The position numbers were made by a program, and so were the translations under genes. A stretch of 31,594 nt of DNA from Sulfurimonadaceae bacterium. Its GTDB lineage: Bacteria > Campylobacterota > Campylobacteria > Campylobacterales > Sulfurimonadaceae. The stretch covers positions 1 to 31,594 of the forward strand of contig JBFEYF010000001.1 of the NCBI GenBank assembly GCA_041562295.1, given 5' to 3'. Position 1 is the stretch's first letter, and every line of letters begins with the position of its first letter. A model generated the notes under the pieces. It did not search any database. It was not told where the DNA came from and worked only from the letters and a program-made list of their open reading frames with translations. Below, in pieces: positions 7,018 to 31,594 of the stretch.

Positions 7018-7026
7018 GAGGCTATT

Positions 7027-7506
7027 ATGTTAAAAGCTTTGATCAACGCCTTTTTGAATCTCTTCAGACCGGTGCATACCCATAACTATCCCAAAGAGCC
7101 GATCACCCTGCCCAAAGATTACCGGGGTCTGATCGAATACAGCGCCGAGGATTGTATCTTTTGCAATAAGTGCGAAAAAGCGTGTCCTCCGCAAGCTATC
7201 GTCTTCAACCAAAACATGGACGGTACGCAGAGCTATAACTACTCCCCCTATGTCTGTATCTACTGCGGAGAGTGTGTCAGAGCCTGTCCCAAACCCGACG
7301 AGGCGCTTTGGCAAAGTGAAAAGAAGCAGGAGTGCGCAACTGTAGAGAAGAAGGTCAACAGCTCATGGGAAACAGTTAAAGCCGAAGCCAAAGCGAGTAA
7401 AGAGGCCTACGCCCAGGAGAAGGCACGCAAAAAAGCCCAAAAGGCGCAAGCAGCGAAAGAAAAATCCGCAGATAAGAACCCTGATACCCCAACGGCCACC
7501 GAATAA
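7027..7506 (+). CDS. echF: Ech hydrogenase 2x[4Fe-4S] subunit F (NuoI family)
   Basis: CIFCNKCEKACP and CIYCGECVRACP motifs; Lys/Ala-rich tail. Confidence 0.9.
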   Translation: MLKALINAFLNLFRPVHTHNYPKEPITLPKDYRGLIEYSAEDCIFCNKCEKACPPQAIVFNQNMDGTQSYNYSPYVCIYCGECVRACPKPDEALWQSEKKQECATVEKKVNSSWETVKAEAKASKEAYAQEKARKKAQKAQAAKEKSADKNPDTPTATE

Positions 7507-8621: not shown

Positions 8622-11609
8622 ATGCAGGGCTTCAACAGTAAGCAGATCTATTTTCTTTTCTCATTTTTTGGCTTGGTTATCGTTATACTCTATTACATCG
8701 TCAGCTATCTTCAACTGGGAGGAAACCTGGAGACACGTTTCCTGCAATCGGCACAAAAGCAGCTAAATTTTCATGAAGCGATGATAAAAAGCCGTATCGA
8801 GCACTACCACCGCGAAGTCCAGACCCTTGCCAAAAGCCCTCTGTTTAGTGAGTGTATCCAAGGGTATCAAAAGAAGCATCCCGACCTTATCAAAAAGGCC
8901 CATGAGTATCTGCTTGACCGTGCAAAATCGCATGATGATATGATGCAGATACGCTACATCGACAATAATGGCCAGGAGCAGCTAAGGGTAGAACGTCACG
9001 ATATCGCTGCACCCCCTTTCATCATCAGTGACAAAAAACTGCAAAACAAAAAAAAGCGCTACTATGTCAAGGAGATTGCTCAGCTTCCCCAAGGTGCCGT
9101 ACTCTACACGCCGATAGACCTCAATATCGAGCACGGCAAGATCGTCCGTCCGTTACAGCCGACCATGCGTATCGGAACCCCACTCTTTATTAACGGTAAA
9201 CGCAGCGGTATGCTCGTCATAAACATCTTTATGCAGAAGTTTCTCAGACAGTTTCAGGACTCTGCTATGTATCACCTCTACATGACCGATGCCAGGGGAA
9301 ATTTCATCCTGCACACCAATACTATCTACAACTGGTCGCGGGAACTGGGCAAAAAGCACACGCTTCATGATGAGATGCCCGAGGTCGCATCAGCTATTTT
9401 GGCGTCCGAGTCGTTCAGTAATGACCACCTCTTTTCAAAGCGGCTCTTCTTTGCCCCCTCCTCCCAATATTTCCTAGTAGCCCAACTCAATACAGCCCTT
9501 ATAAACAGCCAAAAGTCGGAACTCAATCGTGAATTTATGCTCATAGCACTGATCGTCATCCTGATCTCCTTACCCTTCGGTTTGAGTATTGCCCGCCGTT
9601 TCGAACTGCTCTCATCCCGTTTACGTGCCATCATCAACAGCCTGGGAGACGGTCTGTTTATCCTTGATAAAAATGAGAAGACCTCCTATGTCAATAACAA
9701 GGCTGTCGAACTTTTGGAGTACTCATCTGCTGAGTTGCTCAACCGGCGTAACCATAAACTTCTTCAACATGGCGACAGCGAAGGCAACTATATCGATGAA
9801 GAAGATTGCCCGATCCATCACTCTAACCAGACCATGCAGCAGGTACACAGGGATGACAACACCTTTGTAACCAAAAGCGGCCGCCTTATTCACGTAGAGT
9901 ACACAACGACTCCGTTACTGGTCCATAACAGCTATGAGGGTTCTATAACGCTCTTTAAAGATATCACCTCCCGTAAACTGCTTGAAGCGGATCTGAAAAA
10001 CGTGACACAGAGTTTACGAAACGAAAGGAACCTCTTTGTCACCGGCCCCGTCATCGTCTTCACCTGGAAAAACGAAGACAACTGGCCGGTTCACTATGTA
10101 TCCCCGAATGTAGCCGATCTATTCGGATATAGTGATCTTACCTTTATCGAGGGGAGTGTCAGCTATCCGGAAGTGATCCACCCCGAAGATATCGAACGGG
10201 TAACCAAAGAGGTTGAAAAAGCGATCGCTGACAACAAAGAGACTTTGATCCATCAACCCTACCGTATCATCTCCAAAGAGGGACATATCCACTGGGTTTA
10301 TGACAAGACGACAATCGTACGTGAAGAGTCCGGAGAATCGATCCAACTGCATGGCTATATTATCGATATCACTGAGCAAAAAGAGCTTGAAGAGGGTCTT
10401 AAACATTCTGAAAGCAAATACCGTCATCTGGTTGAAAACACTGTGACCGGTGTCTTTCAAATCGATGAAACAGGCAAGCTGCTTTATGCCAATGAAGCGT
10501 TGCTCAACATCCTTGACTGTGAGGAGCCCGACCATATTTATGATGATGGAAACAACTACATCTTCAGACGTATCAAAGACCGTGATACCTTTGTTACGAC
10601 ATTGAAAAACGAGGAAAAGGTCGACAGTTACGAATTCCTTTTACGCACCCACAAAGAGAAGACCAAGAATGTTGTCATAAGTGCCCAATACCTTGACGGT
10701 ATCATCTCGGGTATGATGATCGATATGAGTGATGTCGTCATAGCCGAAAAAGAGATCGAAAAACTTTCCAAAGTGATCGAACAGATCGATGATATTGTTA
10801 CGATTACCGATACTACCGGTGTCATCACCTATGTCAACCAGGCATTCTCCCGTTTTACCGGCTACTCCAAAGAGGATGCTATAGGACGGACACCGCGTCT
10901 TTACAAGTCGGATAAGCACTCTAAGCTTGATATGCAAAAACTGTGGGAGACGATCCTCGAAGGCAATGTCTACAGAGGCGTCATCATCAACAAGAAAAAA
11001 AGCGGTGAGCTCTTTTATGAAGAGAAGACGATCACACCGCTTACCAATGAGTATGGCACAACCATCGCCTATGTATCCACAGGCAAAGATATCACAGACC
11101 GGGTCGAAATGGAGATCAAGCTGGAGCGGTTGGCATCGACCGATTATCTTACCGGACTCTACAACCGCTTCAAGTTTGAAGAACTATTTGAAAAAGAGTC
11201 CAACCGTAGCCACCGCTATGAAGTACCGCTTTCTCTGATCATGTTCGATATCGACTATTTTAAAAAGATCAACGACACCTATGGGCATGATATCGGAGAT
11301 TTAGCACTTAAAGAGCTCACCAAACTGGTCGCGTCCCATATCCGCCAATCCGATGTCTTTGCACGCTGGGGCGGTGAAGAGTTTATGCTGCTGACACCTG
11401 AAATAGACAAAGATGCGGCCTTCATGCTTGCTGAAAAGCTGCGTAAAGCGATCAGCAAGTTTGCCTTTACCGAAGTGGGACATATCAACTGCAGTTTCGG
11501 TGTTGTAGAGCTTCAACAAGAGGATACCTTTAATACACTCTCCCAACGTGTCGATAAGGCACTCTATCAAGCCAAAGAGGGTGGAAGAAACCGAACCGAA
11601 ATCTTATAA
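8622..11609 (+). CDS. Sensor diguanylate cyclase: TM-Cache-TM-4xPAS-GGDEF
   Basis: Two TM helices flank a periplasmic domain (YTPIDLNIEHGKIVRPLQPTMRIGTP). Four PAS-like repeats (YVNNKA, YVSPNV..IHPED, YANEAL, YVNQAFSRFTGYS). C-terminal TDYLTGLYNR...RQSD...RWGGEEF. Confidence 0.92.
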   Translation: MQGFNSKQIYFLFSFFGLVIVILYYIVSYLQLGGNLETRFLQSAQKQLNFHEAMIKSRIEHYHREVQTLAKSPLFSECIQGYQKKHPDLIKKAHEYLLDRAKSHDDMMQIRYIDNNGQEQLRVERHDIAAPPFIISDKKLQNKKKRYYVKEIAQLPQGAVLYTPIDLNIEHGKIVRPLQPTMRIGTPLFINGKRSGMLVINIFMQKFLRQFQDSAMYHLYMTDARGNFILHTNTIYNWSRELGKKHTLHDEMPEVASAILASESFSNDHLFSKRLFFAPSSQYFLVAQLNTALINSQKSELNREFMLIALIVILISLPFGLSIARRFELLSSRLRAIINSLGDGLFILDKNEKTSYVNNKAVELLEYSSAELLNRRNHKLLQHGDSEGNYIDEEDCPIHHSNQTMQQVHRDDNTFVTKSGRLIHVEYTTTPLLVHNSYEGSITLFKDITSRKLLEADLKNVTQSLRNERNLFVTGPVIVFTWKNEDNWPVHYVSPNVADLFGYSDLTFIEGSVSYPEVIHPEDIERVTKEVEKAIADNKETLIHQPYRIISKEGHIHWVYDKTTIVREESGESIQLHGYIIDITEQKELEEGLKHSESKYRHLVENTVTGVFQIDETGKLLYANEALLNILDCEEPDHIYDDGNNYIFRRIKDRDTFVTTLKNEEKVDSYEFLLRTHKEKTKNVVISAQYLDGIISGMMIDMSDVVIAEKEIEKLSKVIEQIDDIVTITDTTGVITYVNQAFSRFTGYSKEDAIGRTPRLYKSDKHSKLDMQKLWETILEGNVYRGVIINKKKSGELFYEEKTITPLTNEYGTTIAYVSTGKDITDRVEMEIKLERLASTDYLTGLYNRFKFEELFEKESNRSHRYEVPLSLIMFDIDYFKKINDTYGHDIGDLALKELTKLVASHIRQSDVFARWGGEEFMLLTPEIDKDAAFMLAEKLRKAISKFAFTEVGHINCSFGVVELQQEDTFNTLSQRVDKALYQAKEGGRNRTEIL

Positions 11610-15458: not shown

Positions 15459-17834
15459 TTACTCAGCACTCCATCCTGTTTTAACAACTTTCTGTGCATC
15501 TTTATACGGGAACTTTTTAAGTAGATCACGAACTGAAAGTTTCTGATCTCCGTCACGCATGTTGTGCATCAGTGTCACAGCAGCCCAATAGTCCTCAGCG
15601 TACTTCGTACCTTTAAGCTGTACCGGAACACCTTTTTCATTAACCTGGTGACATGCCGCACAGGTTACAGGACCTGCATATTTACCGTCAGGGCTGTACT
15701 GTAGTGCCTGAGCGTGTGTAGTCGGGTCAACAGTCGCGTCATCACTGCCGTTATACGTTGTAGAGTACAGACCGTGAATCGATTCGTGACAAGACTGACA
15801 TGCCAGATTGCCGTGTGCTTTAGAGTAGCGGTAGAGTGAATATTTCTTCGGCTGGTCAACCGGGAAGTATTTACCACCTTCAGACTCGACAAACGGAGCG
15901 ATATGACAATCCGCACAGTGAGGCTCAGATGCAGACAACCACCAGTCCGAACCGCCTGATGCCGCTTCATACGGAACCGCACCGCCATCTTTATACCACT
16001 CTACAAGTTTCAGACCTTTCTTAGCCGCATTCTTAACAAGTACCTGACCTTTGTGCTCTGTATAGAACTTAGCAATCGGGTTGTCACCTTTAGAGGTAGG
16101 ATCCGTATAGTGCGTCTGGAATTTCTTCTTGTCACCTTTAGCGACCACTTTGATGATCTCACGCAATGTTTTGTTACGCAGCGTCTGACCTTTTTGCTGG
16201 GCGGCATTTTCGATCTTATCATGTTTGTAAAGATCCTGAGTCAACTGGTTGTGACAGTTTGTACAGTAAAGACCACGGATTTTACCGTCGCTTAGATCTT
16301 TACCTTTTTCGTCTTTGCGGCTTACTGTTTTATAGTAGTGCTTACCGATCTCATTGAGGAAAAATGGCGGTTTGGCATTCGGATTGGTATGGGCATCACG
16401 TCCGAGGAAACATCCGCCGCTGGCTACACGCACATCCTGGTCGGAGTAGTTTGCATTACCTTCACTGTCGATAAACGCGTTAGGTGCGTCTACACCGTTT
16501 TGACGTGCATCTTGCCAGTGTGTCGGGTGACAGGCCTGACATGCCTGGCTACGTCCAGCAGCATCCGGCATCGGTACCATAGCAAGGTGAAATCCGTGGA
16601 TCGCTTCTGTTAAAGGCTTCGCTTTAACCGCTTTATAACCCGTTACACCTACACGAGGCTCTTTTAGGTTACCGGAGATGTTGTCACCGTGACAGTCTGC
16701 ACAGTTAACCGGTCCTGTTTTACCCAGACGTCCGCTTGACGCATTGTCACGGTAATCAGATAGGAATGTCGTACCGTGGTGCTTGTCATGAAGGGATAGG
16801 ATATTGATCGATCCCTCAGATAGACGGGCCATATAGTCAGACATATCCGGGTAGTTCTTCTTCCAGTAGTTGAACTCTCTGTCGGAGTAGTTTAGACCTT
16901 CACTGCGTGCCATCTTGGCAGCTACCCCGTTACGGGAGTGACAGCTGTAACAGTTCGGGATATCAACCGGGTTGGTACCGAAATATTCTACAAGTTTGCC
17001 GTCTTCAGTGATCGCGTTACCCTTGTTGTCATGCAGCTGAACTTTAGACTTTTGGAACGGGTGGAAATCTTTTTCCGTAATGCTACGGATCGTTCCCGTA
17101 CGTTCACTGTCGTAAAATGCCGTTAACGGAAGCCCCAGTGCATCCCACACATGTGACGCAGTCAATACGATCGGAATGTTTTTAACAGGATCGACCAGAG
17201 TATCGACGAATACGACGTTACTTCCCGACTCGTCTGCATAGTCCATCTCTCCGCCTGCCATATGCTTACCGCTTGGGCCCGCATCGATCGCTACGTTGAT
17301 CTCTTTACCGACGTGCAGACGGTCTTTTTCTGTCGCACCCTTTGGAATCGTTCCTTCAAGGTCTTTATAGATAAAAAGGTGTTTCCACACATAGTTGGCG
17401 ATGTTATCACCCGGATCATCCATACGTCCGTTACCGTCAACGTCTTTGGCGACGCTCCAGTATTTCATCTTGTTACCTTCACTGTAGGTATTGTCCTCAG
17501 TCAAATAGCGAAGCTTGACCTTGTCCTTAGGACTTAACAGTTTAGGCAGAGCCCCTTTTTTGCTGGTTTTAATAGCCTGGGCCTGAATCGAGTTGTAGGG
17601 AGGGATCACACAACAATAGGCGATATCGAACCCGACACAGTGCATACCGAGTTCATAATTGATGAAGATATTATAATCTTTGGCAGGATTATAAACCGTC
17701 TCTTTGGACTTCTTGTCTCTGTTCTTTTCTAAAAGCTTGAACGGAGGGTTGGTGTCATAAGCAGAGAGTGAATTGACCATTAAGGCACTCACAACCGCGG
17801 CAACACCCAACTTGAGGGAAACGAAACCTTTCAT
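15459..17834 (-). CDS. Secreted multiheme c-type cytochrome (7 CxxCH motifs)
   Basis: Sec-type signal peptide (MKGFVSLKLGVAAVVSALMVNSLSA). CYSCH, CADCH, CQACH, CTNCH, CADCH, CQSCH and CAACH motifs. AAGGAG RBS. Confidence 0.9.
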   Translation of the reverse strand: MKGFVSLKLGVAAVVSALMVNSLSAYDTNPPFKLLEKNRDKKSKETVYNPAKDYNIFINYELGMHCVGFDIAYCCVIPPYNSIQAQAIKTSKKGALPKLLSPKDKVKLRYLTEDNTYSEGNKMKYWSVAKDVDGNGRMDDPGDNIANYVWKHLFIYKDLEGTIPKGATEKDRLHVGKEINVAIDAGPSGKHMAGGEMDYADESGSNVVFVDTLVDPVKNIPIVLTASHVWDALGLPLTAFYDSERTGTIRSITEKDFHPFQKSKVQLHDNKGNAITEDGKLVEYFGTNPVDIPNCYSCHSRNGVAAKMARSEGLNYSDREFNYWKKNYPDMSDYMARLSEGSINILSLHDKHHGTTFLSDYRDNASSGRLGKTGPVNCADCHGDNISGNLKEPRVGVTGYKAVKAKPLTEAIHGFHLAMVPMPDAAGRSQACQACHPTHWQDARQNGVDAPNAFIDSEGNANYSDQDVRVASGGCFLGRDAHTNPNAKPPFFLNEIGKHYYKTVSRKDEKGKDLSDGKIRGLYCTNCHNQLTQDLYKHDKIENAAQQKGQTLRNKTLREIIKVVAKGDKKKFQTHYTDPTSKGDNPIAKFYTEHKGQVLVKNAAKKGLKLVEWYKDGGAVPYEAASGGSDWWLSASEPHCADCHIAPFVESEGGKYFPVDQPKKYSLYRYSKAHGNLACQSCHESIHGLYSTTYNGSDDATVDPTTHAQALQYSPDGKYAGPVTCAACHQVNEKGVPVQLKGTKYAEDYWAAVTLMHNMRDGDQKLSVRDLLKKFPYKDAQKVVKTGWSAE

Positions 17835-17958: not shown

Positions 17959-18060
17959 CCGACAGTATCGGGATCTTGAGAATATTTCACAGCCATAAAA
18001 GCAGTAAAAAAGTCTCTGGGATATTAAGATGTAAAGATTTTCACCAAATCAGAAAATACA

Positions 18061-18069
18061 TGCTACAAT
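18061..18069 (+). promoter_or_regulatory. Extended -10 (TGcTACAAT) of the hydrogenase/hyp operon
   Basis: TGCTACAAT 27 nt upstream of the ATG at 18097; GAGGAG RBS at 18086-18091. Confidence 0.55.
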
Positions 18070-18096: not shown

Positions 18097-20565
18097 ATGC
18101 GTATCGTGATAGTGGGTGGCGGAATCGCTGCGGTCTATATAGCCAACAAGTTGCTTGAGCTCAATCCTCAAGTCGATGTTCTGATCGTCTCAAAAGAGCC
18201 CTACTACCCTTATGACAGGATCCATCTTTGCTCCCTGGTCGACCACTCCTGCAGGGTCGATGACATCTATTTGGAACTTAATGATAAAGTCCAAGTCGAG
18301 CTTAACCAGGAGATCATCTCTATCGAGACACAAAGCAGATGTGTCCGCTCCGAAAAACAGTGTTACGACTATGACTACCTTATCGTTGCCACCGGTTCAA
18401 AACCCAAAGAGCTTTTCGACATCGCCCATATAGAAAATGCTACGACCTTCCGAAGCGCCAATGACTCATTCCGTATCGCCGAAGGGATCAAGGGTAAGAA
18501 TGTCGTCATCATGGGTGTAGGCCCTATCGGTATCGAGCTTTTAGACACCTTGATGAAGATGAAAGATGCCAAGACGATACGGTTGATTTCACGCGGCGAG
18601 CACCTCTACTCCAAAGACCTGAACCCTGACTCCGTCAAGATGATCCAAAAGATCTTTGAAGCCGATCCCCGTATCACTATCTCATTTAACGATGCCGTCA
18701 CCGATGCCACCACGCAAGGAAACCGCTACACCCAGCTGATGACAAAAAAAGGTCCCATTGATGATCCTTTTCTGATTTTCGGTGTCGGTATAGACCCCAA
18801 TGTCGATTTTGCCAAAGGGGCCGTCGATATCAACCGCGGGATTTTGGTCAACGATATCATGCAATCTTCCGATCCCCGTATCTTTGCCGTCGGAGAAGCT
18901 GCAGAACTGCAAGAGGGCGGTTTTGTTGCCGGACGTGTCAAAGAGTGTACGCTCCAAGCCGATGTCGCCATTGCCAATATCCTGGGTATCGAGCCTTTTG
19001 AGTTTGAGCAGCAGATCGCCATCGACGGGCTTAAAGTCGGCTCTTTTCTCTTTACCGACGTATCTTCTCCTGAGTATGACCCCAAAGATGAAGATAATGA
19101 GAATATCATCATCTCATCCAAAAAAGAGGAGCGTATCGATCAGTACATACTGAAAAACGACAAACTGATGCGCTTTATCGGTATCAATACCAACATTGAC
19201 GTCATGCAGCTTAAACGCCTGATCGAAAACGACCAGTCCGTTGATGCCTCCTTTTTATATGCCAACCGTCTCCAAAGTGAACGCGGCAGGCTGGTCTGCA
19301 GCTGTGCATCGACCTACGAGCTCGATATCATCGAAACAGTCAAAGAGAATGCCATCACGGAGTTTGGCGAGCTAAAACCTTTTTGCGAAGCGGGACGTGT
19401 CTGCGGGCGCTGTAAGAAAGATGTCGTCGACCTGATTGCCGCAACGCCGGTCGATCCCGAAGAGGCAGCAAGAATCAGGGCCGAAAAAGAGCGTCTCAAA
19501 GAGGAAGCGCGTCTGGCCAAAGTCAAAAAACGTATTGACAAGTTCAATGCGCTGCATCCCAAAAACCAGATCGATGCCGGTAACCTCAAAGAGGCAATGG
19601 ACTCTTTTGACATGAGTCACGAGTTTAACCGCTGGGTCTCTATGATCACAGCATCCATGCGTCTGCATCCAGAGTATGAAGGTATCGTCAAAGAGAGTGT
19701 CCAGCAACTGAACAAGATCCCTATCATCTGGCTGGAACTTTCCGACTGTACCGGAAACTCCGAAGCCTTTATCAAGACTGCCCACCCCAAAGTCGATGAC
19801 CTGATCCTTAAATATATCTCATTGGATTATCATGAACTGCTGATGGCGGGATCCGGAGACCAATCCGAATCAGCCCTGGATGACGTGATCAAAAATGACA
19901 AGGGCAACTATATCCTGATCGTCGAAGGGGCCGTACCGTTGGCTATGGATGGCAAGTTTTTACGTATCGGACCCAAGGGAGAGACCGGACTGGAACTGCT
20001 AAAACGTGTCGCCAAAGATGCCGCGGCGATCCTTTCGGTGGGTTCTTGCGCCTTTGACGGAGGTGTCGTAGCGATCGAACCCAATCCTACGGGAGCCGTC
20101 GGTGTGGCCGAAGCATTGGGCCGCAACGATATCATCAACCTTCCTGGATGCCCGACCAACCCGATCAATATCGTAGGAACCCTGCTGCACTACATCATGT
20201 TTGAAGAGCTACCCGAACTGGATGAGCGCAACCGTCCGCTTTGGGCCTACTCTCAGCGAATACACGACAACTGTGAAAGACGCGGTCATTATGACCTGGA
20301 TGAGTTCGTCTTGGAGTGGGGAGACGAAGGGGCCAAGCAGGGATGGTGTCTGTTCAAGATGGGATGTAAGGGTCCCTATGCCGATCTTAACTGTTCACTG
20401 GTTAAGTTCAATGAGGGAACGAGCTGGCCGGTACAGGTAGGTCACGGCTGTTTCGGATGCGGACAGGGCAAAATCGCCTTTGAGCACCTGGCCAATAACC
20501 GGGAAGTAACCGATGAAGTCAAAACACTGCTGGAAGATGAAAAGGGAGAGACTCATGGCAAATAA
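18097..20565 (+). CDS. Fusion protein: NirB-like FAD/NAD(P)H oxidoreductase + BFD-like [2Fe-2S] + [NiFe]-hydrogenase small subunit
   Basis: GGGIAA, YDRIHL, ATGS, GVGPIGIE and FAVGE (pyridine nucleotide-disulphide oxidoreductase fold). C401-S-C403...C436-G-R-C439. Then IWLELSDCTGN, GSCAFDGG, PGCP, HDNC..CLFKMGC and NC..WP..GHGCFGC. Confidence 0.9.
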   Translation: MRIVIVGGGIAAVYIANKLLELNPQVDVLIVSKEPYYPYDRIHLCSLVDHSCRVDDIYLELNDKVQVELNQEIISIETQSRCVRSEKQCYDYDYLIVATGSKPKELFDIAHIENATTFRSANDSFRIAEGIKGKNVVIMGVGPIGIELLDTLMKMKDAKTIRLISRGEHLYSKDLNPDSVKMIQKIFEADPRITISFNDAVTDATTQGNRYTQLMTKKGPIDDPFLIFGVGIDPNVDFAKGAVDINRGILVNDIMQSSDPRIFAVGEAAELQEGGFVAGRVKECTLQADVAIANILGIEPFEFEQQIAIDGLKVGSFLFTDVSSPEYDPKDEDNENIIISSKKEERIDQYILKNDKLMRFIGINTNIDVMQLKRLIENDQSVDASFLYANRLQSERGRLVCSCASTYELDIIETVKENAITEFGELKPFCEAGRVCGRCKKDVVDLIAATPVDPEEAARIRAEKERLKEEARLAKVKKRIDKFNALHPKNQIDAGNLKEAMDSFDMSHEFNRWVSMITASMRLHPEYEGIVKESVQQLNKIPIIWLELSDCTGNSEAFIKTAHPKVDDLILKYISLDYHELLMAGSGDQSESALDDVIKNDKGNYILIVEGAVPLAMDGKFLRIGPKGETGLELLKRVAKDAAAILSVGSCAFDGGVVAIEPNPTGAVGVAEALGRNDIINLPGCPTNPINIVGTLLHYIMFEELPELDERNRPLWAYSQRIHDNCERRGHYDLDEFVLEWGDEGAKQGWCLFKMGCKGPYADLNCSLVKFNEGTSWPVQVGHGCFGCGQGKIAFEHLANNREVTDEVKTLLEDEKGETHGK

Positions 20566-22249
20566 GAAGATCGTAATTGATCCTATCACCAGGATCGAAG
20601 GGCATCTACGTGTCGAAGTGGAAGTGGATGAGAACAATATCGTAACCGAAGCGTGGGCCTCGGGGCAGCTCTTTCGCGGTATCGAAACGATTCTCAAAGG
20701 GCGTGACCCCCGAGATGCGGGGCTTATCGCCCAGCGTATCTGCGGTGTCTGTACCAATGTCCACTACCGTGCCTCTATCTCAGCCGTAGAGGATGCCTAT
20801 GATATTTCCCTTCCGCCCAATGCCGAGATCATCCGTAACATGGTCACCCTCGCCCTTTTTATGCAAGACCATATCGTTCACTACTACCACCTGCACTCTC
20901 TGGATTATGTCGATGTGGTATCGGCTTTGGAAGCGGATCCCGGAGCCGCATCGGAGCATGCATTGCAGTTTCATGAACACCCCTACCGTAACTCGACAGG
21001 TCACTTAAGCGCCGTCAAAGAGAAACTCGCCTCTTTTGTCAAAGCGGGACGCCTGGGGCTCTTTGCCAACGGCTACTGGGGTCATGCCACCTATAAGCTT
21101 TCGCCCGAAGAGAACCTCATCCATATGAACCACTACCTTGAGGCGCTTCGCATACAGCGGGAGCTCTCTAAAGCGATCGCCATCTTCGCAGGGAAAACAC
21201 CTCATCCCCAAAATCTTGTTGTGGGAGGTGTGACCAGCGTTATGGATATGCTCAACCCCCAAAGGCTCAATGATTTCATGTTTATCATCAAAGAGTCCCG
21301 GGAGTTTATCGAAAGAGCCTATATCCCGGATATGAAGATGATCGTCAAGGCCTACGGTGAGGAGATCAAGGCGGGTTACGGACGCGGCAGCGGGAACTTC
21401 CTGGCATGTGGGGGCTACCGGTTTGGCAAACAGGATCAGCTCTTTACAGACGGCGTCGTCACGGAGCACGATTTCACCAATATCGCACCCTTTGATGACA
21501 CCAAGATCACCGAAGAGGCCTCCCGTTCCTGGTATAAGGAGGATGCACCGTTATCGCCTTACGAGGGGGACTCCACCCCGGAGTATACCGATCTCAATCC
21601 TGACGGGACACTTAAAACCGAAGGCAAATATTCCTGGGTCAAAGCACCCCGTTATGAAGGCAAACCCATGGAGGTAGGTCCTTTGGCACGTATGGTTATA
21701 GGCTATGCCAAAGAGTCTAAGATCATCAAACCCTATATGCAAAACTTTATGGATGCTACGGGGATGTCACTGTTAGACTTCTCTACATCCATCGGGCGTA
21801 ATGCGGCCCGAGCTGTCGAAGCCCAGGTGTGCGGTGACTATATCTTTGACTTCGTCAGTGACCTGATCGAAAACATCAAATATTATGATGAAGAGACCTG
21901 GACCAAGTACACTTTCGAAGAGCTGCCTAAAGAGGCTAAAGGACGCGGTATCTTTGAAGTACCGCGTGGCGTACTTTCGCACTTTGTCCGTATCGAAGAT
22001 GCCAAGATCGCCAACTACCAGGCTGTTGTACCGACAACGTGGAACGCTTCGCCTAAAGATGCCGACGGCGTCAGAGGCCCCTATGAAGCTTCGATCATCG
22101 GTATCAAGCTGGAAGATCCCAGCCAGCCGCTGGAGGTACTGCGGGTCGTACACTCTTTTGACCCCTGTCTGGCCTGTGCCGTGCATGTCATCGACCCTCA
22201 GGGTAAAGAGCTTTCGCAATATAAGATCCCAAGCAGCTGTTCGGTGTAG
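20555..22249 (+). CDS. [NiFe]-hydrogenase large subunit, group 1-type
   Basis: DPITRIEGHL, L1 QRICGVCT, KTPHPQN, EVPRG, L2 SFDPCLACAVH followed by a 20-aa extension. Start at MANKK (20555) after GGGAGA. Confidence 0.95.
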   Translation: MANKKIVIDPITRIEGHLRVEVEVDENNIVTEAWASGQLFRGIETILKGRDPRDAGLIAQRICGVCTNVHYRASISAVEDAYDISLPPNAEIIRNMVTLALFMQDHIVHYYHLHSLDYVDVVSALEADPGAASEHALQFHEHPYRNSTGHLSAVKEKLASFVKAGRLGLFANGYWGHATYKLSPEENLIHMNHYLEALRIQRELSKAIAIFAGKTPHPQNLVVGGVTSVMDMLNPQRLNDFMFIIKESREFIERAYIPDMKMIVKAYGEEIKAGYGRGSGNFLACGGYRFGKQDQLFTDGVVTEHDFTNIAPFDDTKITEEASRSWYKEDAPLSPYEGDSTPEYTDLNPDGTLKTEGKYSWVKAPRYEGKPMEVGPLARMVIGYAKESKIIKPYMQNFMDATGMSLLDFSTSIGRNAARAVEAQVCGDYIFDFVSDLIENIKYYDEETWTKYTFEELPKEAKGRGIFEVPRGVLSHFVRIEDAKIANYQAVVPTTWNASPKDADGVRGPYEASIIGIKLEDPSQPLEVLRVVHSFDPCLACAVHVIDPQGKELSQYKIPSSCSV

Positions 22250-22900
22250 ATGATGGAGAGTTCTCTTTTGCTTCTATTTTGGTACGGGGTGCTGCATGCA
22301 TTCGGCCCCGACCACTTAACGGTCATCGCCAACTTCTCTATCGGCCAGGAGCTTAAAAAAGCCCTCTTTGTCGTCATCGGGTTTGCCCTGGGTCACGGGA
22401 TGATGCTCTTTATCTTCGCATCCGTTCTTTCACAAAGCGACCTGCCCTTCTGGCTTTTAGCCTATGCCGATACGATCGCGGCCCTTATTATTCTGATGAT
22501 GGGACTTTATCTGCTTTATAAGCTCTACAGCGGTTCGATCCTGTTAAAACGCCACAAACATGGAGAGACGGAACATACCCATATCACCTTCGACACTTCC
22601 CACAAACATGATAAAGCCCCCTCCCGTATCGGGATGGTCGTCTTTCTCGGCAGCCTGATGGGTATCGGGGGACTGCGCGGCATGCTTATCACCCTGGGGG
22701 CTCTTTCGCAGACAGCGGTAACACCTTGGATGGTTTTACTCTTTATTTTCGGTGTCATGACTGTTTTTTTGACTTTTGGTCTTATAATACTTTATATCAA
22801 TAAAAGCGTACTGCATTCCCAGCGCCACGTCGAACAGGGCTTTAAAGCTGCCGGTTTTACCTCGATCGGTGTAGCTGTGTATATGCTAAGCGCCTCCTAA
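22250..22900 (+). CDS. Nickel/cobalt transporter (UreH/NiCoT/RcnA-like)
   Basis: HAFGPDH TM motif, GFALGHG second motif, His-rich loop HKHGETEHTH..HKH, about 6 TM helices. Sits inside the hydrogenase operon. Confidence 0.75.
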   Translation: MMESSLLLLFWYGVLHAFGPDHLTVIANFSIGQELKKALFVVIGFALGHGMMLFIFASVLSQSDLPFWLLAYADTIAALIILMMGLYLLYKLYSGSILLKRHKHGETEHTHITFDTSHKHDKAPSRIGMVVFLGSLMGIGGLRGMLITLGALSQTAVTPWMVLLFIFGVMTVFLTFGLIILYINKSVLHSQRHVEQGFKAAGFTSIGVAVYMLSAS

Positions 22901-22915
22901 TTGAAGGAAACTCAT

Positions 22916-23683
22916 ATGTGTCAAGATTGCGGATGTTCGATTACTACGGATGCGTCAACCCACCATCACCACCATGAGCATGAGCATGATCACAATCAGA
23001 CCACGATCCATGCCAACCCCCAGCTTAATGATAAAAAGACGATCGATGTGATCACGAAGATCCTGGATAAGAATGACCATGAAGCGGCTCATAACCGCGA
23101 ACATTTCGAACGGCATAACATCTTGGCTCTTAACCTGATGAGCAGCCCGGGCAGCGGCAAAACGACCCTGTTGGAGCGTACCGCAGAACTTGGCGGGTTG
23201 AACTTTTGTGTCATCGAGGGGGATCTTGAGACCAACAAAGATGCCGAACGTCTGCAGGCCAAAGGGGTACAGGCCCACCAGATCACGACGGGTACGGCCT
23301 GTCATCTGGATGCCTTTATGGTCCACAAGGGTCTGCACCATATGGACCTGGATAAAGCCGATGTCTGTTTTGTCGAAAATGTCGGCAACCTCGTCTGCCC
23401 CGCCAGCTATGATGTGGGAACGCACCTCAACATCGTTTTACTCTCTGTCCCCGAAGGTGACGACAAGGTAGCCAAATACCCCGTCATGTTTCAAAAAGCG
23501 GATCTGCTGCTGATTACCAAATCTGACCTGCTGCCCCACTTTGAGTTCAGCATCGAAACGGTGAAAAAAGAGGCCAGAAAACTTAACCCGAAAGTCGATA
23601 TTTTGCAGATCAGCTCAAAAGATGACACCTCCATACAAAAATGGATCGACTATATCAACTTCAAAAAGAGCATGAGAGACTGA
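22916..23683 (+). CDS. hypB: Hydrogenase nickel incorporation GTPase HypB
   Basis: N-terminal MCQDCGC, His-rich tract, SSPGSGKTT, IEGD, CHLDA, ENVGNLVCPA, EGDDK..KYP, TKSD. Confidence 0.97.
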   Translation: MCQDCGCSITTDASTHHHHHEHEHDHNQTTIHANPQLNDKKTIDVITKILDKNDHEAAHNREHFERHNILALNLMSSPGSGKTTLLERTAELGGLNFCVIEGDLETNKDAERLQAKGVQAHQITTGTACHLDAFMVHKGLHHMDLDKADVCFVENVGNLVCPASYDVGTHLNIVLLSVPEGDDKVAKYPVMFQKADLLLITKSDLLPHFEFSIETVKKEARKLNPKVDILQISSKDDTSIQKWIDYINFKKSMRD

Positions 23684-23684
23684 T

Positions 23685-23924
23685 ATGTGTCTATCTATCC
23701 CTTCCAAAGTCGTCGCAATTGACAAAGAGACTAACTCCGCAACGGTAGAGACGATGGGGGTCACGCGTACGACCAGTCTCGACCTGATCGATGAAGAGGT
23801 AACCCTCGGAGACTACCTGCTTATCCATGTCGGTTTTGCTATGAACAAGATCGATGAAACCGATGCCCTGGAGACGATCAAAGTCTATGAAGAGATCTTA
23901 TCCGCGATGGATGAGGGCTCATGA
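23685..23924 (+). CDS. hypC: Hydrogenase assembly chaperone HypC
   Basis: MCLSIPSKV...GDYLLIHVGFAM. Confidence 0.96.
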   Translation: MCLSIPSKVVAIDKETNSATVETMGVTRTTSLDLIDEEVTLGDYLLIHVGFAMNKIDETDALETIKVYEEILSAMDEGS

Positions 23925-25045
23925 GTCACAAAAGTGATTTTGATCTCTTTACCGCCTTTAGAGATCCTAAGATTATCCAAAACCTCAAAGAGCAGATAGA
24001 GCAGGAGGCCTCGAAACTCTCTAAAGAGTTACATATCATGGAGGTATGCGGCGGGCATACGCATACGATCATGAAATACGGTCTCAACCAGCTGCTTCCT
24101 CCCAATATCTCATTTATCCACGGTCCCGGATGTCCCGTTTGTGTCATGCCCAAAGAGCGCGTCGATCAGGCACAGGCACTGGCCGAACATGAGAATGTTA
24201 TTTTGGTGACGCTGGGAGATATGCTCAAAGTCCCCGGTTCCAAAGGCTCTTTGCAGTTAAGCCGCTCCAAAGGAGCCGATGTCCGTTTCGTCTACTCTCC
24301 CATGGATACGATCAAGATCGCTTTGGAAAACCGTGATAAAAAAGTGATCTTCTTTGCCATAGGCTTTGAGACGACGACGCCGATGACTGCGGCACTTATC
24401 AGGCATGTTATCGAGCAGGATATTCCCAACCTGCTCTTTCACATCAACCACATCACTGTCCCCGAACCGATGCAGGTACTCTTGGATGATCCCGCTTCCA
24501 AGATCGATGCCTTTATCGGTCCGGCCCATGTAAGTGTCATCTCCGGCGCCAAGATCTATGAGCCTTTTGTGACCGATTATCACAGGCCTGTCGTCGTATC
24601 GGGCTTTGAACCGGTTGACGTTATGGCATCACTCTTGATGATCTTGAAACAGGTCAGCGGCAACCGTTGCGAATTGCAGATCCAGTACTCGCGAAGCGTT
24701 GATTATGACGGCAATCTGACGGCACAAAAACTGATCGACACCTATATGCAAAAAAGAGAGCACTTCAGATGGCGTGGACTGGGTGATATCCCCCACTCTG
24801 CCCTGCAGCTTCGGGCAGAGTTTGCCCACCTGGATGCCGAAAAGATCTATGCTGACATCCTACCCACGCAGACGATCGATGATCACAAGCTCTGTATCTG
24901 CGGTTCGATCCTCAAAGGCCAGGCCAAACCGCATGAGTGCCGGGTATTTGGTACCGCCTGTACCCCGTCTACACCGCTTGGCAGCTGCATGGTCTCCTCT
25001 GAAGGTGCCTGTGCCGCCTATTTCAAATTTGGACAGCATCTATGA
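23921..25045 (+). CDS. hypD: Hydrogenase maturation protein HypD
   Basis: MEVCGGHTH, GPGCPVC, GFETT, GFEP and C-terminal CICG..C..FG..CTP..PLGSCMVSSEGACAAY. Confidence 0.97.
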   Translation: MSHKSDFDLFTAFRDPKIIQNLKEQIEQEASKLSKELHIMEVCGGHTHTIMKYGLNQLLPPNISFIHGPGCPVCVMPKERVDQAQALAEHENVILVTLGDMLKVPGSKGSLQLSRSKGADVRFVYSPMDTIKIALENRDKKVIFFAIGFETTTPMTAALIRHVIEQDIPNLLFHINHITVPEPMQVLLDDPASKIDAFIGPAHVSVISGAKIYEPFVTDYHRPVVVSGFEPVDVMASLLMILKQVSGNRCELQIQYSRSVDYDGNLTAQKLIDTYMQKREHFRWRGLGDIPHSALQLRAEFAHLDAEKIYADILPTQTIDDHKLCICGSILKGQAKPHECRVFGTACTPSTPLGSCMVSSEGACAAYFKFGQHL

Positions 25046-26037
25046 ACCCCATCCTTTTAGCCCAGGGCAACGGCGGAAACGAAAACCGCGACCTGATTGA
25101 GAACCTCTTTTACAAACATCTGGGCAACGAGACCCTGCTAAAAAGTGAAGATGCCGCCGTGATCGAAGCGGGCAGACTCGCCTTTACTACCGACAGTTTC
25201 ACCGTCTCTCCGCTTATCTTTGCTGGCGGTGATATCGGGAAGCTCTCGATCTGCGGTACCTGTAACGATCTGGCCATGATGGGGGCACAGCCTAAGTATC
25301 TGAGTCTGGCCATGATGATCGAAGAGGGGCTGGAGCATGAGCTGTTGGAATCGATCACCCGTTCGATGGCCAAGGAGCTTGAAAAAAACGGGGCTCAGGT
25401 CGTCACAGGCGATACCAAGGTCGTTCCCAAAGGGAGTGTCGACAAACTTTTTATTACGACGACAGGTATCGGGGAGATCGTACAAAACGGTATCTCCTCA
25501 CAGGGCTTGACCCCGGGAGATGCCATCATCGTCTCGGGATCTATCGGTCGCCACGGTGCGGCGATCTTTGCGGCCCGTGAAGGTATCGAGCTTCAAAGCA
25601 GACTCACCAGTGATGCCGCATCCCTGTGGCCTTTGGTTGATGCTCTTTTGCAGGGGGGCATCAAACCTGTAGCGATGCGGGATGCGACACGGGGCGGATT
25701 GGCCGCGGTACTCAATGAGTGGGCACAACAGTCTCAGGTAGGTATCGCCGTCGAAGAGAGTGAAGTACCGGTTTCCAAAGAGGTCCAGGGGATCTGTGAA
25801 CTTCTGGGATTTGAAGCGTACAATCTGGCCAATGAAGGTACCTTTGTCTTAGCATTGAAAAAAGATCAGGTACCGGATGCGCTGGATATCCTGCAGCGTT
25901 TTGAGTGTGCTGCAGATGCCGCCTATATCGGAGAGGTCACCCGAGAGCATCGCGGACGGGTCATCCTCGAAAGCGCCTGGAAGACCCAGAGGTTTTTAGA
26001 GATGCCTTCAGGTGAACTTCTTCCGCGTATCTGTTAG
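25042..26037 (+). CDS. hypE: Carbamoyl dehydratase HypE
   Basis: FTTDSFTVSP, GGDIGKL..CGTCNDLAM, VTGDTKVV, MRDATRGGL and C-terminal GELLPRIC. Confidence 0.97.
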   Translation: MNPILLAQGNGGNENRDLIENLFYKHLGNETLLKSEDAAVIEAGRLAFTTDSFTVSPLIFAGGDIGKLSICGTCNDLAMMGAQPKYLSLAMMIEEGLEHELLESITRSMAKELEKNGAQVVTGDTKVVPKGSVDKLFITTTGIGEIVQNGISSQGLTPGDAIIVSGSIGRHGAAIFAAREGIELQSRLTSDAASLWPLVDALLQGGIKPVAMRDATRGGLAAVLNEWAQQSQVGIAVEESEVPVSKEVQGICELLGFEAYNLANEGTFVLALKKDQVPDALDILQRFECAADAAYIGEVTREHRGRVILESAWKTQRFLEMPSGELLPRIC

Positions 26038-26045
26038 GGTCTGTC

Positions 26046-26387
26046 ATGCATGAATTTTCGATCGTTCAGGCTTTACTTGACCAGTGTGAAGAGCACGCCC
26101 AAGTCAACGATGCCAGCAAGATCACCAAAGTCTCTATCAAGGTCGGGGTCATGAGTGGGGTCGAACCCGATCTGTTGACAACAGCCTTTGAGACCTTTAA
26201 AGAGGGTACGGTCTGCAATGATGCCCTGCTTGATATGAAGATTCAGGAGGTACTGCTGTTATGCCGTTCCTGCGCTCAAACGGCCCCGTTACAAAAAGGA
26301 GACTACCGCTGTGCACTTTGCGGCAGTGAAGAGATCTCGATTGCCGACGGTCAGGATATGATGCTTATGCAACTTGAGATGGAATAA
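26046..26387 (+). CDS. hypA: Nickel metallochaperone HypA
   Basis: MHEFSIV N-terminus; CRSC and CALC zinc-binding motifs. Confidence 0.96.
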   Translation: MHEFSIVQALLDQCEEHAQVNDASKITKVSIKVGVMSGVEPDLLTTAFETFKEGTVCNDALLDMKIQEVLLLCRSCAQTAPLQKGDYRCALCGSEEISIADGQDMMLMQLEME

Positions 26388-29912: not shown

Positions 29913-30839
29913 TTATTTACATGCAGAGGTAAGTATTTCGTATATGTGTAATGCTCTACCACTTATAGCGTTCCCTTGTAATTGACACATAACTTGCTTG
30001 GCTTCATCTGAGTCTAGATGTTTTTTACAAAAATCTTCAAAGTAGTCATAGCAATTCTCTATAATCGTTTCTGCTTGTTTGTATTTTGTGTTTAAAAGGC
30101 GAAATCTAGATTGGGTTCTTGTGTTTAAAAAACTATATAAATTTGGCTCATTGTTTATCAGTGTAAAATAGTTTTTACTTGCTTCTTCAAAACTCAGAAG
30201 TGTAAACAGGAAGTTCGATACAACTTCATATGAGAATCCAGAAATGACAATATCATCAAAAGTACTTTGATCATCGGGGTCAACTGCTTGATACTCTTTA
30301 ATTTCCCCTATTGCATTATAAAGCTCAGAACTAAAGTTGTCATATAATTTGATTTTTTCCGAGACTCTCAGCAGATAGATTTCCCTTTTTGACCTTTGTT
30401 TTAGTATTTTTCCAGCTTTTCCTAAATCAATGTTGATTTTATAATCAAGTTCGTTCGCTTTTGTTTTTGCAACTTTATATTTAGATTTTGCATCAGCTAT
30501 CAATGAACTTATTCTAGATTGCTCATTTATATGAGTCCATCGCATTGAATTTTTTTTATTTATAACAACCAAAATAACAGGGAATGCGATGCTTTGCCAA
30601 TATAATAAATTCTTTAATGCAATTGAGGTAGTAAAATTATCATTAGTACCATTTGTTTTTATTTGTACAAAAACAAATTCACCCGTGCTTCTATCATCAT
30701 TATCAATAAACTCGATTTTGGCATCAATGCCTAAGTCTTTATCTAATAATCTACATGGTGAATTAAAATGTCGAACAATCCAGTATGTAAAATAATGTTC
30801 ACCCCAGTCACCTGATCTTTTTCGTGATAAGTATTTCAT
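29913..30839 (-). CDS. DUF4365-like (PD-(D/E)xK) putative endonuclease domain protein
   Basis: N-terminal GDWGE...DKDLGIDAKIEF...FVFVQIKT matches the DUF4365-type D..(Q)xK nuclease pattern; helical C-terminal region. Confidence 0.65.
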   Translation of the reverse strand: MKYLSRKRSGDWGEHYFTYWIVRHFNSPCRLLDKDLGIDAKIEFIDNDDRSTGEFVFVQIKTNGTNDNFTTSIALKNLLYWQSIAFPVILVVINKKNSMRWTHINEQSRISSLIADAKSKYKVAKTKANELDYKINIDLGKAGKILKQRSKREIYLLRVSEKIKLYDNFSSELYNAIGEIKEYQAVDPDDQSTFDDIVISGFSYEVVSNFLFTLLSFEEASKNYFTLINNEPNLYSFLNTRTQSRFRLLNTKYKQAETIIENCYDYFEDFCKKHLDSDEAKQVMCQLQGNAISGRALHIYEILTSACK

Positions 30840-30964
30840 TAAATGTAAGTTTATTCCTAGTTTTTATAATTATAATGGAATTAGTTTAAATATGTTATAG
30901 AAATTTTGGATATACTCATTTGCGATATAGGGTAATGTTTGCCTTTTAAGGAGTTGTTTTAGTA

Positions 30965-31594
30965 ATGATTTATGTTGGAGACACAAGTAATGATCCACAA
31001 GGAACAACTGCGATACCTGAACAATCATTGTTCATTTGGCTAGATATTCTTGGGTTTGCTGACGCTGTAAATTCTGAGACAAAATACAAAGAGTTATCAG
31101 AACTATTGAAAAAATTTCAAGATTTGTTTTTTGAAAGTGATAATTATAATCCTACTATAATTTCGGATGGTATGGTACTTTCTATCAAAAATATTAGGAA
31201 TGCAAACTCACTTAAACAAATATTTAAAGAAATAGCAGAAAAACAATTCTTATTCATTATGGAAAATAAATATTTTATTAGGGGTGGTATTGCTGTAGGT
31301 ACTAGATACGAAAGTGATGATGAAAATAAGCATTTTATTAGCAATGGGTTGGCAAGAGCCTATAAATTAGAGTCTACTGGAGTTGATTGGCCTATCATTG
31401 CTACAGATGAGAAAAACATAAATCTTATTAGAAAGCTCATAGGGCCCACGTCTGACAGTGAATTGTTGGGTTTATATGAAGGTCTAAATAAGAATGGGGA
31501 AAAGCTATACTTAATCGATTTTATTCAAAAAAACGATGACTATTTAGATTTATTACAGAAAAAAATTTTTGAGTATAAAGAGAGTCCTTCTGTA
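30965..31594 (+). CDS. Class III nucleotide cyclase-like protein, 3' end off-window (not in ORF track)
   Basis: AAGGAG RBS at 30948-30953; 210 open codons. Motifs FIWLDILGF, IISDG, IRGGIAVG and SNGLARAYKLES..DWPII. Confidence 0.6.
   Translation, partial: MIYVGDTSNDPQGTTAIPEQSLFIWLDILGFADAVNSETKYKELSELLKKFQDLFFESDNYNPTIISDGMVLSIKNIRNANSLKQIFKEIAEKQFLFIMENKYFIRGGIAVGTRYESDDENKHFISNGLARAYKLESTGVDWPIIATDEKNINLIRKLIGPTSDSELLGLYEGLNKNGEKLYLIDFIQKNDDYLDLLQKKIFEYKESPSV

Follow-up and report, generated by a model that had tools for sequence, protein, structure and literature searches.

A [NiFe]-hydrogenase with a NirB-like flavoprotein fused to its small subunit in a Sulfurimonadaceae bacterium: a candidate cytoplasmic H2:NAD(P)+ oxidoreductase of group 1 ancestry

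The 31,594-nucleotide stretch of DNA analysed here (the window; positions 1 to 31,594 of contig JBFEYF010000001.1, assembly GCA_041562295.1, from a Sulfurimonadaceae bacterium) encodes a two-gene [NiFe]-hydrogenase in which the small subunit is preceded, on one and the same polypeptide, by a flavoprotein and a [2Fe-2S] domain that together correspond to the electron-input half of the nitrite reductase NirB. On balance, it seems probable that this hydrogenase is a soluble, cytoplasmic and heterodimeric H2:NAD(P)+ oxidoreductase (NAD(P), nicotinamide adenine dinucleotide (phosphate)) of group 1b ancestry that operates reversibly, although its cofactor content, the path between the clusters, the nucleotide specificity, the direction and the activity as such are inferred. 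What the sequences show directly are the architecture, the conserved cofactor ligands, the lack of elements for export and anchoring, the group 1 ancestry, and the descent from a hydA with a Tat (twin-arginine translocation) leader.

The architecture itself has been described before. Scott et al. (2006) reported for Thiomicrospira crunogena XCL-2 a hydrogenase (Tcr2037/2038) with a two-domain fusion as its small subunit and no twin-arginine leader, from which a cytoplasmic location and direct H2<->NAD(H) coupling were inferred (PMC1635747). Hansen and Perner (2016) assigned the enzyme, with a small subunit of 813 aa, to group 1b (monophyletic with Epsilonproteobacteria) and extended the fusion to Sulfuricurvum, Sulfurimonas, Sulfurovum and Arcobacter, naming orthologues in Sulfuricurvum kujiense, Sulfurimonas autotrophica, Sulfurovum sp. 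AR and Arcobacter nitrofigilis (PMC4744846). A review on Sulfurimonas lists several 'Group I' enzymes and does not mention the fusion (PMC4584964). The original prediction for this window, made from the DNA letters without database searches, had spoken of a candidate new class, which cannot be maintained, since the fusion, the cytoplasmic site and the H2<->NAD(H) inference were already in the first of these papers and were extended in the second. The window enzyme is therefore a further member of an architecture that is known from the genome papers of 2006 and 2016 but is biochemically uncharacterised. What is new here is the family-wide invariance of the cofactor ligands, the fossil twin-arginine translocation (Tat) leader and the monophyly of the partner large subunits, as well as the CxxN proximal motif as a lineage trait, an NADP-type loop, an invariant Cys45 and an association with an Ech-type hydrogenase.

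Anatomy of the fusion protein

The fusion gene is a frame of 822 codons that, as predicted, runs open and without interruption from 18097 to 20565 on the forward strand (open reading frame (ORF) list and translation) and encodes a protein of 822 aa. A reductase for flavin adenine dinucleotide (FAD) and NAD(P)H with the NirB/ferredoxin-reductase fold comes first (residues 1-395; 18097-19281), as indicated by Pyr_redox_2, AlphaFold2 (AF2), Foldseek and the alignment to NirB. It is followed by a BFD-type [2Fe-2S] domain (residues 399-448; 19291-19440; Fer2_BFD above its cut-off), a helical linker that contains a decayed Tat leader (residues 449-540; 19441-19716; alignment to conventional HydA), and the small-subunit core (residues 541-792; 19717-20472; alignment to the solved small subunits of MBH and Hyd-2). 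In Pfam, Pyr_redox_2 covers residues 1-272 (E 2.4e-37), Fer2_BFD residues 399-448 (30.5 bits, cut-off 26), Oxidored_q6 residues 551-698 and NiFe_hyd_SSU_C residues 718-792. The NCBIfam hydA model (TIGR00391) reaches 362 bits on residues 508-792 against a cut-off of 179.5, and the N-terminal 470 of the 794 positions of the NCBIfam NirB model match residues 3-452, with a score below the equivalog cut-off. These matches agree with the domain anatomy as it was first read, and the motifs quoted at that time (GGGIAA, YDRIHL, GVGPIGIE, FAVGE and CSC...CGRC) were all found in the translation. Selenocysteine at the conserved Cys positions can be ruled out, as the in-frame stops that had been flagged are natural C-terminal stop codons.

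The flavoprotein part was modelled well by AF2 (predicted local distance difference test (pLDDT) above 90 on residues 1-395), and Foldseek placed it closest to putidaredoxin, ferredoxin, toluene-dioxygenase and rubredoxin reductases, with target-normalised template modelling (TM) scores of 0.81-0.86. In all of these enzymes, electrons are exchanged between NAD(P)H and a partner protein, which is either a [2Fe-2S] protein or a rubredoxin. CoA-disulfide reductase (CoADR), persulfide reductase and NADH peroxidase are also among the structural neighbours. By BLASTP, residues 1-449 of the fusion are collinear with residues 4-472 of Escherichia coli NirB at 25% identity, the alignment pairing PYDRIHLCS with AYDRVHLSS and VCSC...CGRC with ICSC...CGGC. 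The fusion thus shares with the electron-input half of NirB and with the NAD(P)H:ferredoxin, putidaredoxin and rubredoxin reductases the fold and the order in which the FAD and NAD(P) Rossmann motifs, YDRxHL and the BFD [2Fe-2S] domain follow one another. Unlike in NirB, however, the place of the siroheme/[4Fe-4S] catalytic half is taken by the hydrogenase small subunit, and no Pfam match to the NIR_SIR domains of that half was obtained on the fusion protein.

Conservation of the predicted electron path

Conservation was read from an alignment of the window protein with 140 orthologues (53-77% identity), and all statements on invariance refer to this set. In the flavoprotein, the invariant positions comprise G7 and G9 (FAD loop), G140, G142, P143, I144 and E147 (NAD(P) loop), R166 and the complete YDRIHLC motif, and equally invariant are the four BFD cysteines C401, C403, C436 and C439 (140/140). 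In other words, the FAD motif GxGxxA/G, the NAD(P) motif GxGxxG/A, YDRxHL and the BFD motif CxC...CxxC are all present in the order known from NirB and do not vary within the family. In the small-subunit part, residue-by-residue alignment to solved MBH and Hyd-2 assigns C551, N554, C651 and C685 to the proximal cluster, C766, C785 and C788 (with P778) to a medial cluster of the [3Fe-4S] type, and H723, C726, C751 and C757 to the distal cluster, every one of them invariant.

Compared with the canonical set of group 1 small-subunit ligands (four Cys for the proximal, three Cys for the medial, and one His plus three Cys for the distal cluster), 10 out of 11 are present, the second proximal Cys being replaced in 140/140 sequences by Asn554 (motif DCTGNS at 19741-19758). 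The same substitution (DCAGN) is found in the conventional HydA of fusion-bearing relatives, which has a Tat leader, a membrane anchor and hydC, and of the 67 closest small-subunit representatives in which the proximal motif is present, 13 have CxxN and 5 have CxxD. As CxxN is shared by conventional relatives, it is a trait of the lineage instead of a defect specific to the fusion; for the same reason, an adaptation specific to the fusion is ruled out. Hansen and Perner judged subgroup-specific Fe-S motifs of this hydrogenase to be 'not conserved' and considered that the clusters are perhaps not bound (PMC4744846). The ligand conservation across the family does not support the idea of non-binding Fe-S sites. 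The wire that had been predicted (H2 - NiFe - three Fe-S clusters - [2Fe-2S] - FAD - NAD(P)) is compatible with all of the conserved ligands.

Loss of export and anchoring, and origin of the fusion

Conventional small subunits of Campylobacterota align to the fusion from about residue 456 onward, i.e. including their leader. Where conventional HydA has RRDFMKWASATTA, the fusion has SHEFNRWVSMITA, and the leader stretch ...NRRDFMKWASATTA... of conventional HydA corresponds to ...MSHEFNRWVSMITA... in the fusion. The former leader is now internal, buried at residue ~507, with SHEFNRW in the place of RRDFMKW, and across the fusion family the two former Tat arginine positions are occupied by N/S and by R/K/Q/H. 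Because the HydA leader aligns with the fusion linker while the Tat arginines have been lost, the fusion gene can be said to have arisen when a nirB-like reductase was set in frame before a complete hydA, after which the Tat leader decayed into a linker.

In agreement with the original prediction, neither an export signal nor an anchor nor a cytochrome b was encountered. An N-terminal Tat signal is absent, the N-terminus being the FAD Rossmann strand rather than a signal peptide, and hydrophobicity windows gave no transmembrane segment in the fusion apart from one buried strand. The fusion ends about 30 residues past the last cluster ligand, whereas the HydA of a relative runs on into a C-terminal anchor helix. 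By tblastn, hydC (cytochrome b) directly follows 6/6 conventional large subunits examined, and none was found in the window or in about 24 fused loci, several of these with 4 kb of downstream sequence. The closest conventional relatives are the membrane-bound HydABC enzymes of the Wolinella succinogenes type (1b), with 44-54% identity in the small and 48-51% in the large subunit. They share with the fusion the cluster ligands, including the proximal motif DC(A/T)GN, and have a Tat leader that aligns with the fusion linker, but the RRxFxK motif, the C-terminal anchor helix, hydC, and the periplasm-facing, quinone-reducing arrangement are features of HydABC only.

The large subunit belongs to group 1

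The [NiFe]-hydrogenase large subunit (20555-22249, forward strand) is of group 1 (1b-like) and has a C-terminal extension for processing by an endopeptidase, as seen from PF00374 (683 bits, whole model), solved relatives and the tree. The L1 motif (xRxCGVCxxxH) is represented by QRICGVCTNVH and the L2 motif (DPCxACxVH) by DPCLACAVH, followed by a 20-residue C-terminal tail; none of the four Ni ligands is missing, and the processing peptide at the C-terminus is kept as well. The group 1 motifs QRICGVCT and DPCLACAVH that had been noticed at first are therefore present as stated, and only the start needs a small correction: the ORF is open from 20513, whereas translation probably begins with the ATG at 20555, with AAGGGAGAG as ribosome-binding site. 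This ATG overlaps the stop codon of the fusion by 11 nt, which suggests translational coupling, and the two genes are adjacent in all loci looked at.

Against solved group 1 enzymes, the large subunit scores 503 bits with Desulfovibrio vulgaris (1b), 489 with Allochromatium vinosum (1e), 471 with Hyd-2 (1c) and about 450-469 with the 1d enzymes Hyd-5 and Hyd-1 (range for 1b/1c/1d/1e 440-503). With other solved enzymes the scores are about 290-316 bits for 1a NiFeSe, 203 for Huc (2a), 154 for 1h and about 90-112 for group 3. In a maximum-likelihood tree, the 19 fusion-partnered large subunits form one clade (100/100 support, long stem of 0.92), which nests in a 100/100 group with conventional HydB of Campylobacterota, apart from the E. 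coli 1c and 1d enzymes; identity to the conventional HydB of the same genomes is 48-51%. Bit scores and tree thus rule out an affiliation with group 3 or group 2 and bear out the placement in group 1, while the subgroup label 1b is taken from PMC4744846, with whose assignment they agree. A 'cytoplasmic Group 2' hydrogenase has been published for S. denitrificans, but this is another enzyme: in our reading, its quantitative PCR primer for the large subunit translates to CGICGH, compared to CGVCT here.

Distribution of the fusion

A survey of homologues, which had been recommended as a check, established that the fusion is neither an artefact of assembly nor unique to the window genome. A search of 5.8 billion proteins returned 702 matches to the fusion, and the best 120 of these are all 805-836 aa long with an identical Pfam domain string, a recurrence that chance is unable to explain. 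Named members among these 120 are Sulfuricurvum, Sulfurimonas-related Thiovulaceae, Thiomicrolovo and unclassified Campylobacterota; no Hydrogenovibrio entry is among the best 120 matches of the protein searches. When a member with 53% identity served as the query of another search, 677 clusters were obtained at E<=1e-100, among them those of the cultured Sulfurimonas autotrophica, S. gotlandica GD1, S. lithotrophica and Ca. S. marisnigri; along its entire length, the S. autotrophica orthologue shares 56% identity with the window protein. Altogether the intact fusion is found in about 700 clusters when 90% identity is applied, but no more than one or two full-length representatives are left at 50%, and it is therefore a tight family.

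At the level of genomes, 27/401 species-level Campylobacterota genomes, from four families, carry the full-length fusion (one copy is cut by a contig end). Within the window's own family it was found in 18/34 genomes, and in the three other families in 5, 2 and 1 genomes; in the remaining Campylobacterota genomes among the 401, matches are confined to the small-subunit part. Named metagenome-assembled genomes (MAGs) with the fusion belong to Sulfurovum, Hydrogenimonas, Arcobacteraceae and Sulfurimonadaceae. The identical architecture in hundreds of independent assemblies, complete genomes included, rules out a chimera.

The closest published system is 'hydrogenase gene cluster I' of XCL-2 and SP-41 (Hydrogenovibrio crunogenus, Tcr_2037/2038), the likeness resting on the published description and on the 56% identity to the S. 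autotrophica orthologue that is named there. Shared are a small subunit of ~813 aa that begins with an FAD- and NAD(P)H-binding PNDR domain, the lack of a Tat motif and of a cytochrome b, the 1b L1/L2 motifs, and adjacent hyp genes. The window differs in its host (an uncultured Sulfurimonadaceae-like member of the Campylobacterota), in the presence of a NicO-like gene, and in having the endopeptidase and hypF on another contig. A long small subunit of a different kind, with 808-839 aa, was observed in Helicobacter saguini (P0162 / P0279), with the hydrogenase domain at 127-379 and a long C-terminal extension.

Nucleotide preference of the flavoprotein

Where the second Rossmann strand ends, the family reads (S/V/A)-R166-(G/K/S) with an invariant Arg, and in our reading of the alignment the Glu of NirB falls on Ser165 of the family, so that Ser/Val-Arg is found instead of the acidic, NAD-specifying residue. 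The archaeal homologues 1xhc and P. horikoshii CoADR, which both accept NADPH, have HRG and VRG at the R166 site. Since the invariant Arg166 stands where an acidic residue is usual, NADP+ would be the likelier acceptor, and a preference of the fused enzyme for NADP(H) can be proposed with moderate confidence. A further difference from NirB is Cys45 (18229-18231), which lies within the YDRIHLC motif, is invariant (140/140), and replaces a Ser; it aligns within <=2 residues of the catalytic Cys of CoADRs. Cys284 (18946-18948) is conserved in 138/140 orthologues.

Proposed function and its alternatives

In the mechanism that we favour, H2 would be split by the large subunit at its Ni-Fe site, and the electrons would then travel along the proximal, the medial [3Fe-4S] and the His-ligated distal cluster of the small-subunit domain to the BFD [2Fe-2S] cluster and on to FAD, from where they would leave as hydride to NAD(P)+ (NADP+ being the likelier of the two). 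The reaction should be reversible, with H2 -> NAD(P)H as the likeliest physiological direction, which would supply an autotroph that uses the reductive tricarboxylic acid (rTCA) cycle with reductant, without any need for reverse electron transport. Beyond the anatomy, the conserved ligands and the lost export and anchoring elements, this mechanism is favoured by the transcription of the SP-41 orthologue, which is strongest with H2 as sole donor (PMC6501319), by the presence of a full maturation set, by the lack of any other uptake-type hydrogenase in the window genome, and by the like inference published for XCL-2 (PMC1635747). A cytoplasmic, soluble enzyme with flavin-mediated H2-NAD(P) coupling has its characterised counterparts in group 3d (Hox/SH) and in the group 3b sulfhydrogenases; there, however, the diaphorase consists of separate NuoEF-like or GltD-like subunits with flavin mononucleotide (FMN) or FAD, and not of a fused flavoprotein with the glutathione reductase (GR) fold.

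A number of points weigh against an H2:NAD(P)+ oxidoreductase. Unless H2 is plentiful, there is little driving force for the transfer of its electrons to NAD(P)+, and because the proximal Cys is an Asn and the medial cluster is of the [3Fe-4S] type, the potentials along the wire may be poorly suited to the reduction of NAD(P)+. The AF2 single-chain model of the whole fusion has a pLDDT of 30-60 in the small-subunit half and does not define how the domains pack, and hence provides no cluster-to-cluster distance. A plain diaphorase role also leaves the invariant Cys45 unexplained. With regard to activity, XCL-2, whose sole hydrogenase is of the fused type, consumed no H2 and gave no detectable activity in either the soluble or the membrane fraction (PMC4744846), and S. 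autotrophica, a carrier of an orthologue, is reported to be without H2 uptake activity (PMC4584964). Strain SP-41 has, besides the fused cluster, a second hydrogenase, which is of group 1d, comes with a Tat signal and a cytochrome b, and accounts for the activity in the membrane fraction (Gonnella et al. 2019; PMC6501319). Finally, no NAD(P)-linked assay, purification or structure of any member was found in the literature searched, in line with the original prediction, which named no characterised example.

Some of these points could be explained if the same enzyme ran backwards, i.e. as an NAD(P)H-oxidising, H2-evolving redox valve under acceptor scarcity. Such a sink for reductant was put forward as the alternative by Scott et al. 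(2006; PMC1635747), it would fit the reported lack of H2 uptake in organisms that have only the fused hydrogenase (PMC4584964, PMC4744846), and in NirB the flavin/[2Fe-2S] module is the electron-input half. Group 1 enzymes are usually biased towards H2 oxidation, however, NAD(P)H is expensive for a sulfur-oxidising rTCA autotroph, and its conversion to H2 is feasible only when H2 is very low. The fused-type gene of SP-41 is, moreover, transcribed most strongly with H2 as sole electron donor (PMC6501319), and a valve of this kind is considered rather unlikely. A different end point of the flavoprotein has to be weighed because of Cys45: H2 might drive the reduction of a thiol, persulfide, polysulfide, O2/peroxide or small redox protein via FAD and this residue, with NAD(P)H as second donor or regulator. 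The conservation of Cys45 and Cys284, the position of the former with respect to the active-site Cys of CoADR, the structural neighbours among CoADR, persulfide reductase and NADH peroxidase, and the life of the hosts on sulfur compounds are all consistent with thiol chemistry. Yet it is NirB and the ferredoxin or rubredoxin reductases, and not CoADR, that come first in sequence and in fold, the NAD(P) site is fully conserved, the fusion protein is without a rhodanese or other sulfur-handling domain, and a rhodanese adjoins just one locus (L022), and this end point is considered improbable.

It has further been suggested by Hansen and Perner (2016) that the Fe-S sites are compromised, in which case the protein would be a decaying, non-catalytic relic or a regulatory H2 sensor without turnover. 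The undetected activity in XCL-2 and the motifs judged not to be conserved (PMC4744846), together with the CxxN motif, can be cited in favour, but such a state is hard to reconcile with the invariance of Asn554 and the 10/11 canonical ligands at 53-77% identity, with an intact fusion in about 700 clusters, with CxxN in conventional HydA that keeps its Tat leader, anchor and cytochrome b, and with the Ni ligands and processing peptide of the large subunit. The protein also has no signalling domain, and we regard a relic or sensor as very unlikely. An association with the membrane, through docking to a partner that is encoded elsewhere (a cytochrome b or another protein) and feeding of the quinone pool, appears very improbable: it was speculated on for SP-41 by Gonnella et al. 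(2019; PMC6501319), and many fusion-bearing genomes do have a conventional HydABC as well, but the window genome has neither a conventional hydrogenase nor a hydC beside one, the fusion is without an anchor helix, and the enzyme would be on the cytoplasmic face, opposite to the side where HydC docks.

The distinction matters for the way in which H2 metabolism is read from genomes. Surveys class the fused enzyme by its large subunit as a 'group 1b respiratory uptake hydrogenase', and one annotation source names many of the fused small subunits 'quinone-reactive Ni/Fe-hydrogenase small subunit'. If the enzyme is cytoplasmic and NAD(P)-linked, the H2-oxidation potential of Sulfurimonas, Sulfuricurvum, Sulfurovum and Hydrogenovibrio populations, which are key sulfur oxidisers at vents, redoxclines and in aquifers, has partly been mis-assigned. 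It would then also be the first NAD(P)-coupled hydrogenase that combines a group 1 core with a single-polypeptide diaphorase, and a two-gene H2/NADPH catalyst attractive for cofactor regeneration.

Operon, maturation genes and genome context

The ATG of the fusion gene is preceded at 5 nt by the ribosome-binding site GAGGAG. Further upstream, a consensus scan gave a promoter-like site (TTCACC, 18 nt spacer, TG-TACAAT; 18040-18069, forward strand) with 9/12 consensus matches and an extended -10 TG, which is weak, the scan having yielded no more sites than in shuffled sequence. Downstream of the large subunit, and beginning at its stop codon, lies a gene for a NicO/HupE-like membrane protein of 216 aa with a His-rich loop (HKHGETEHTHITFDTSHKH) (22250-22900, forward strand; NicO 24.1 bits, below cut-off). 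It is polytopic (42 hydrophobic windows) and probably a nickel permease, and in other fused loci no such gene adjoins the fusion. Maturation genes, assigned by profile matches, follow on the same strand, i.e. hypB (22901-23683), hypC (23685-23924), hypD (23921-25045), hypE (25042-26037) and hypA (26046-26387), so that the gene order is fusion, large subunit, NicO-like, hypB, hypC, hypD, hypE, hypA. In Sulfuricurvum the order is fusion, large subunit, endopeptidase, hypF, hypB, hypC, hypD. The endopeptidase and hypF are absent from the operon in the window and are located on another contig of the same genome, which therefore has the full hyp set plus endopeptidase.

The window genome (2.17 Mb, 95% complete) has two [NiFe] large-subunit genes, namely the fusion partner and one of an Ech-type group 4 enzyme; no conventional HydABC or other uptake-type hydrogenase was found in it. 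The Ech-type membrane hydrogenase is encoded by an operon of six genes (2458-7506, forward strand) 11 kb upstream of the fused hydrogenase, with Pfam matches to NuoL-like, NuoH-like, Oxidored_q6, Complex1_49kDa/NiFeSe and 2x[4Fe-4S] proteins. Orthologues of the Ech large subunit (E<=1e-90) are present in 10/27 fusion-bearing genomes compared to 15/374 others, and in six sampled genomes and three named MAGs the gene lies 0.4-5 kb from the fusion; in several relatives the Ech operon is situated upstream of the fused hydrogenase at 0.4-4 kb. Related genomes are not independent, and hydrogenase genes often cluster round shared hyp genes, and the association is therefore a hint only. It does motivate a reading in which the two enzymes, paired through intracellular H2, would act as an energy-coupled ferredoxin:NAD(P) oxidoreductase, which we consider quite unlikely. 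In one direction, the fused enzyme would turn NAD(P)H into H2, and Ech would use the membrane potential to pass the electrons of H2 on to ferredoxin; in the other, reduced ferredoxin would yield NAD(P)H via H2, with conservation of energy. If true, such H2 cycling would be a source of reduced ferredoxin in sulfur-oxidising rTCA Campylobacterota without external H2, and would account for the absence of net H2 uptake in strains that have the fused enzyme alone.

Between the two hydrogenases, and divergent from the fusion gene, lies a gene for a secreted multihaem cytochrome c of 791 aa (15459-17834, reverse strand), with weak matches to MtrC/MtrF-domain and cytochrome c7 models. This 7-haem protein was considered as a redox partner and rejected, as no counterpart stands beside the fusion in 20 other loci. 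The Ech operon is flanked by genes for GGDEF diguanylate cyclases, a small one upstream (1574-2281, minus strand) and a second one between Ech and the fused hydrogenase (8622-11609) with HK-sensor/Cache and several PAS domains; at locus L021, an ammonium-transporter-GGDEF fusion is found upstream of the fused hydrogenase. The end of the window (29913-31594) is AT-rich (GC 0.30 at 30001-31000) and looks foreign or island-like; it contains a DUF4365 gene as well as an unassigned ORF that continues beyond the last position of the window.

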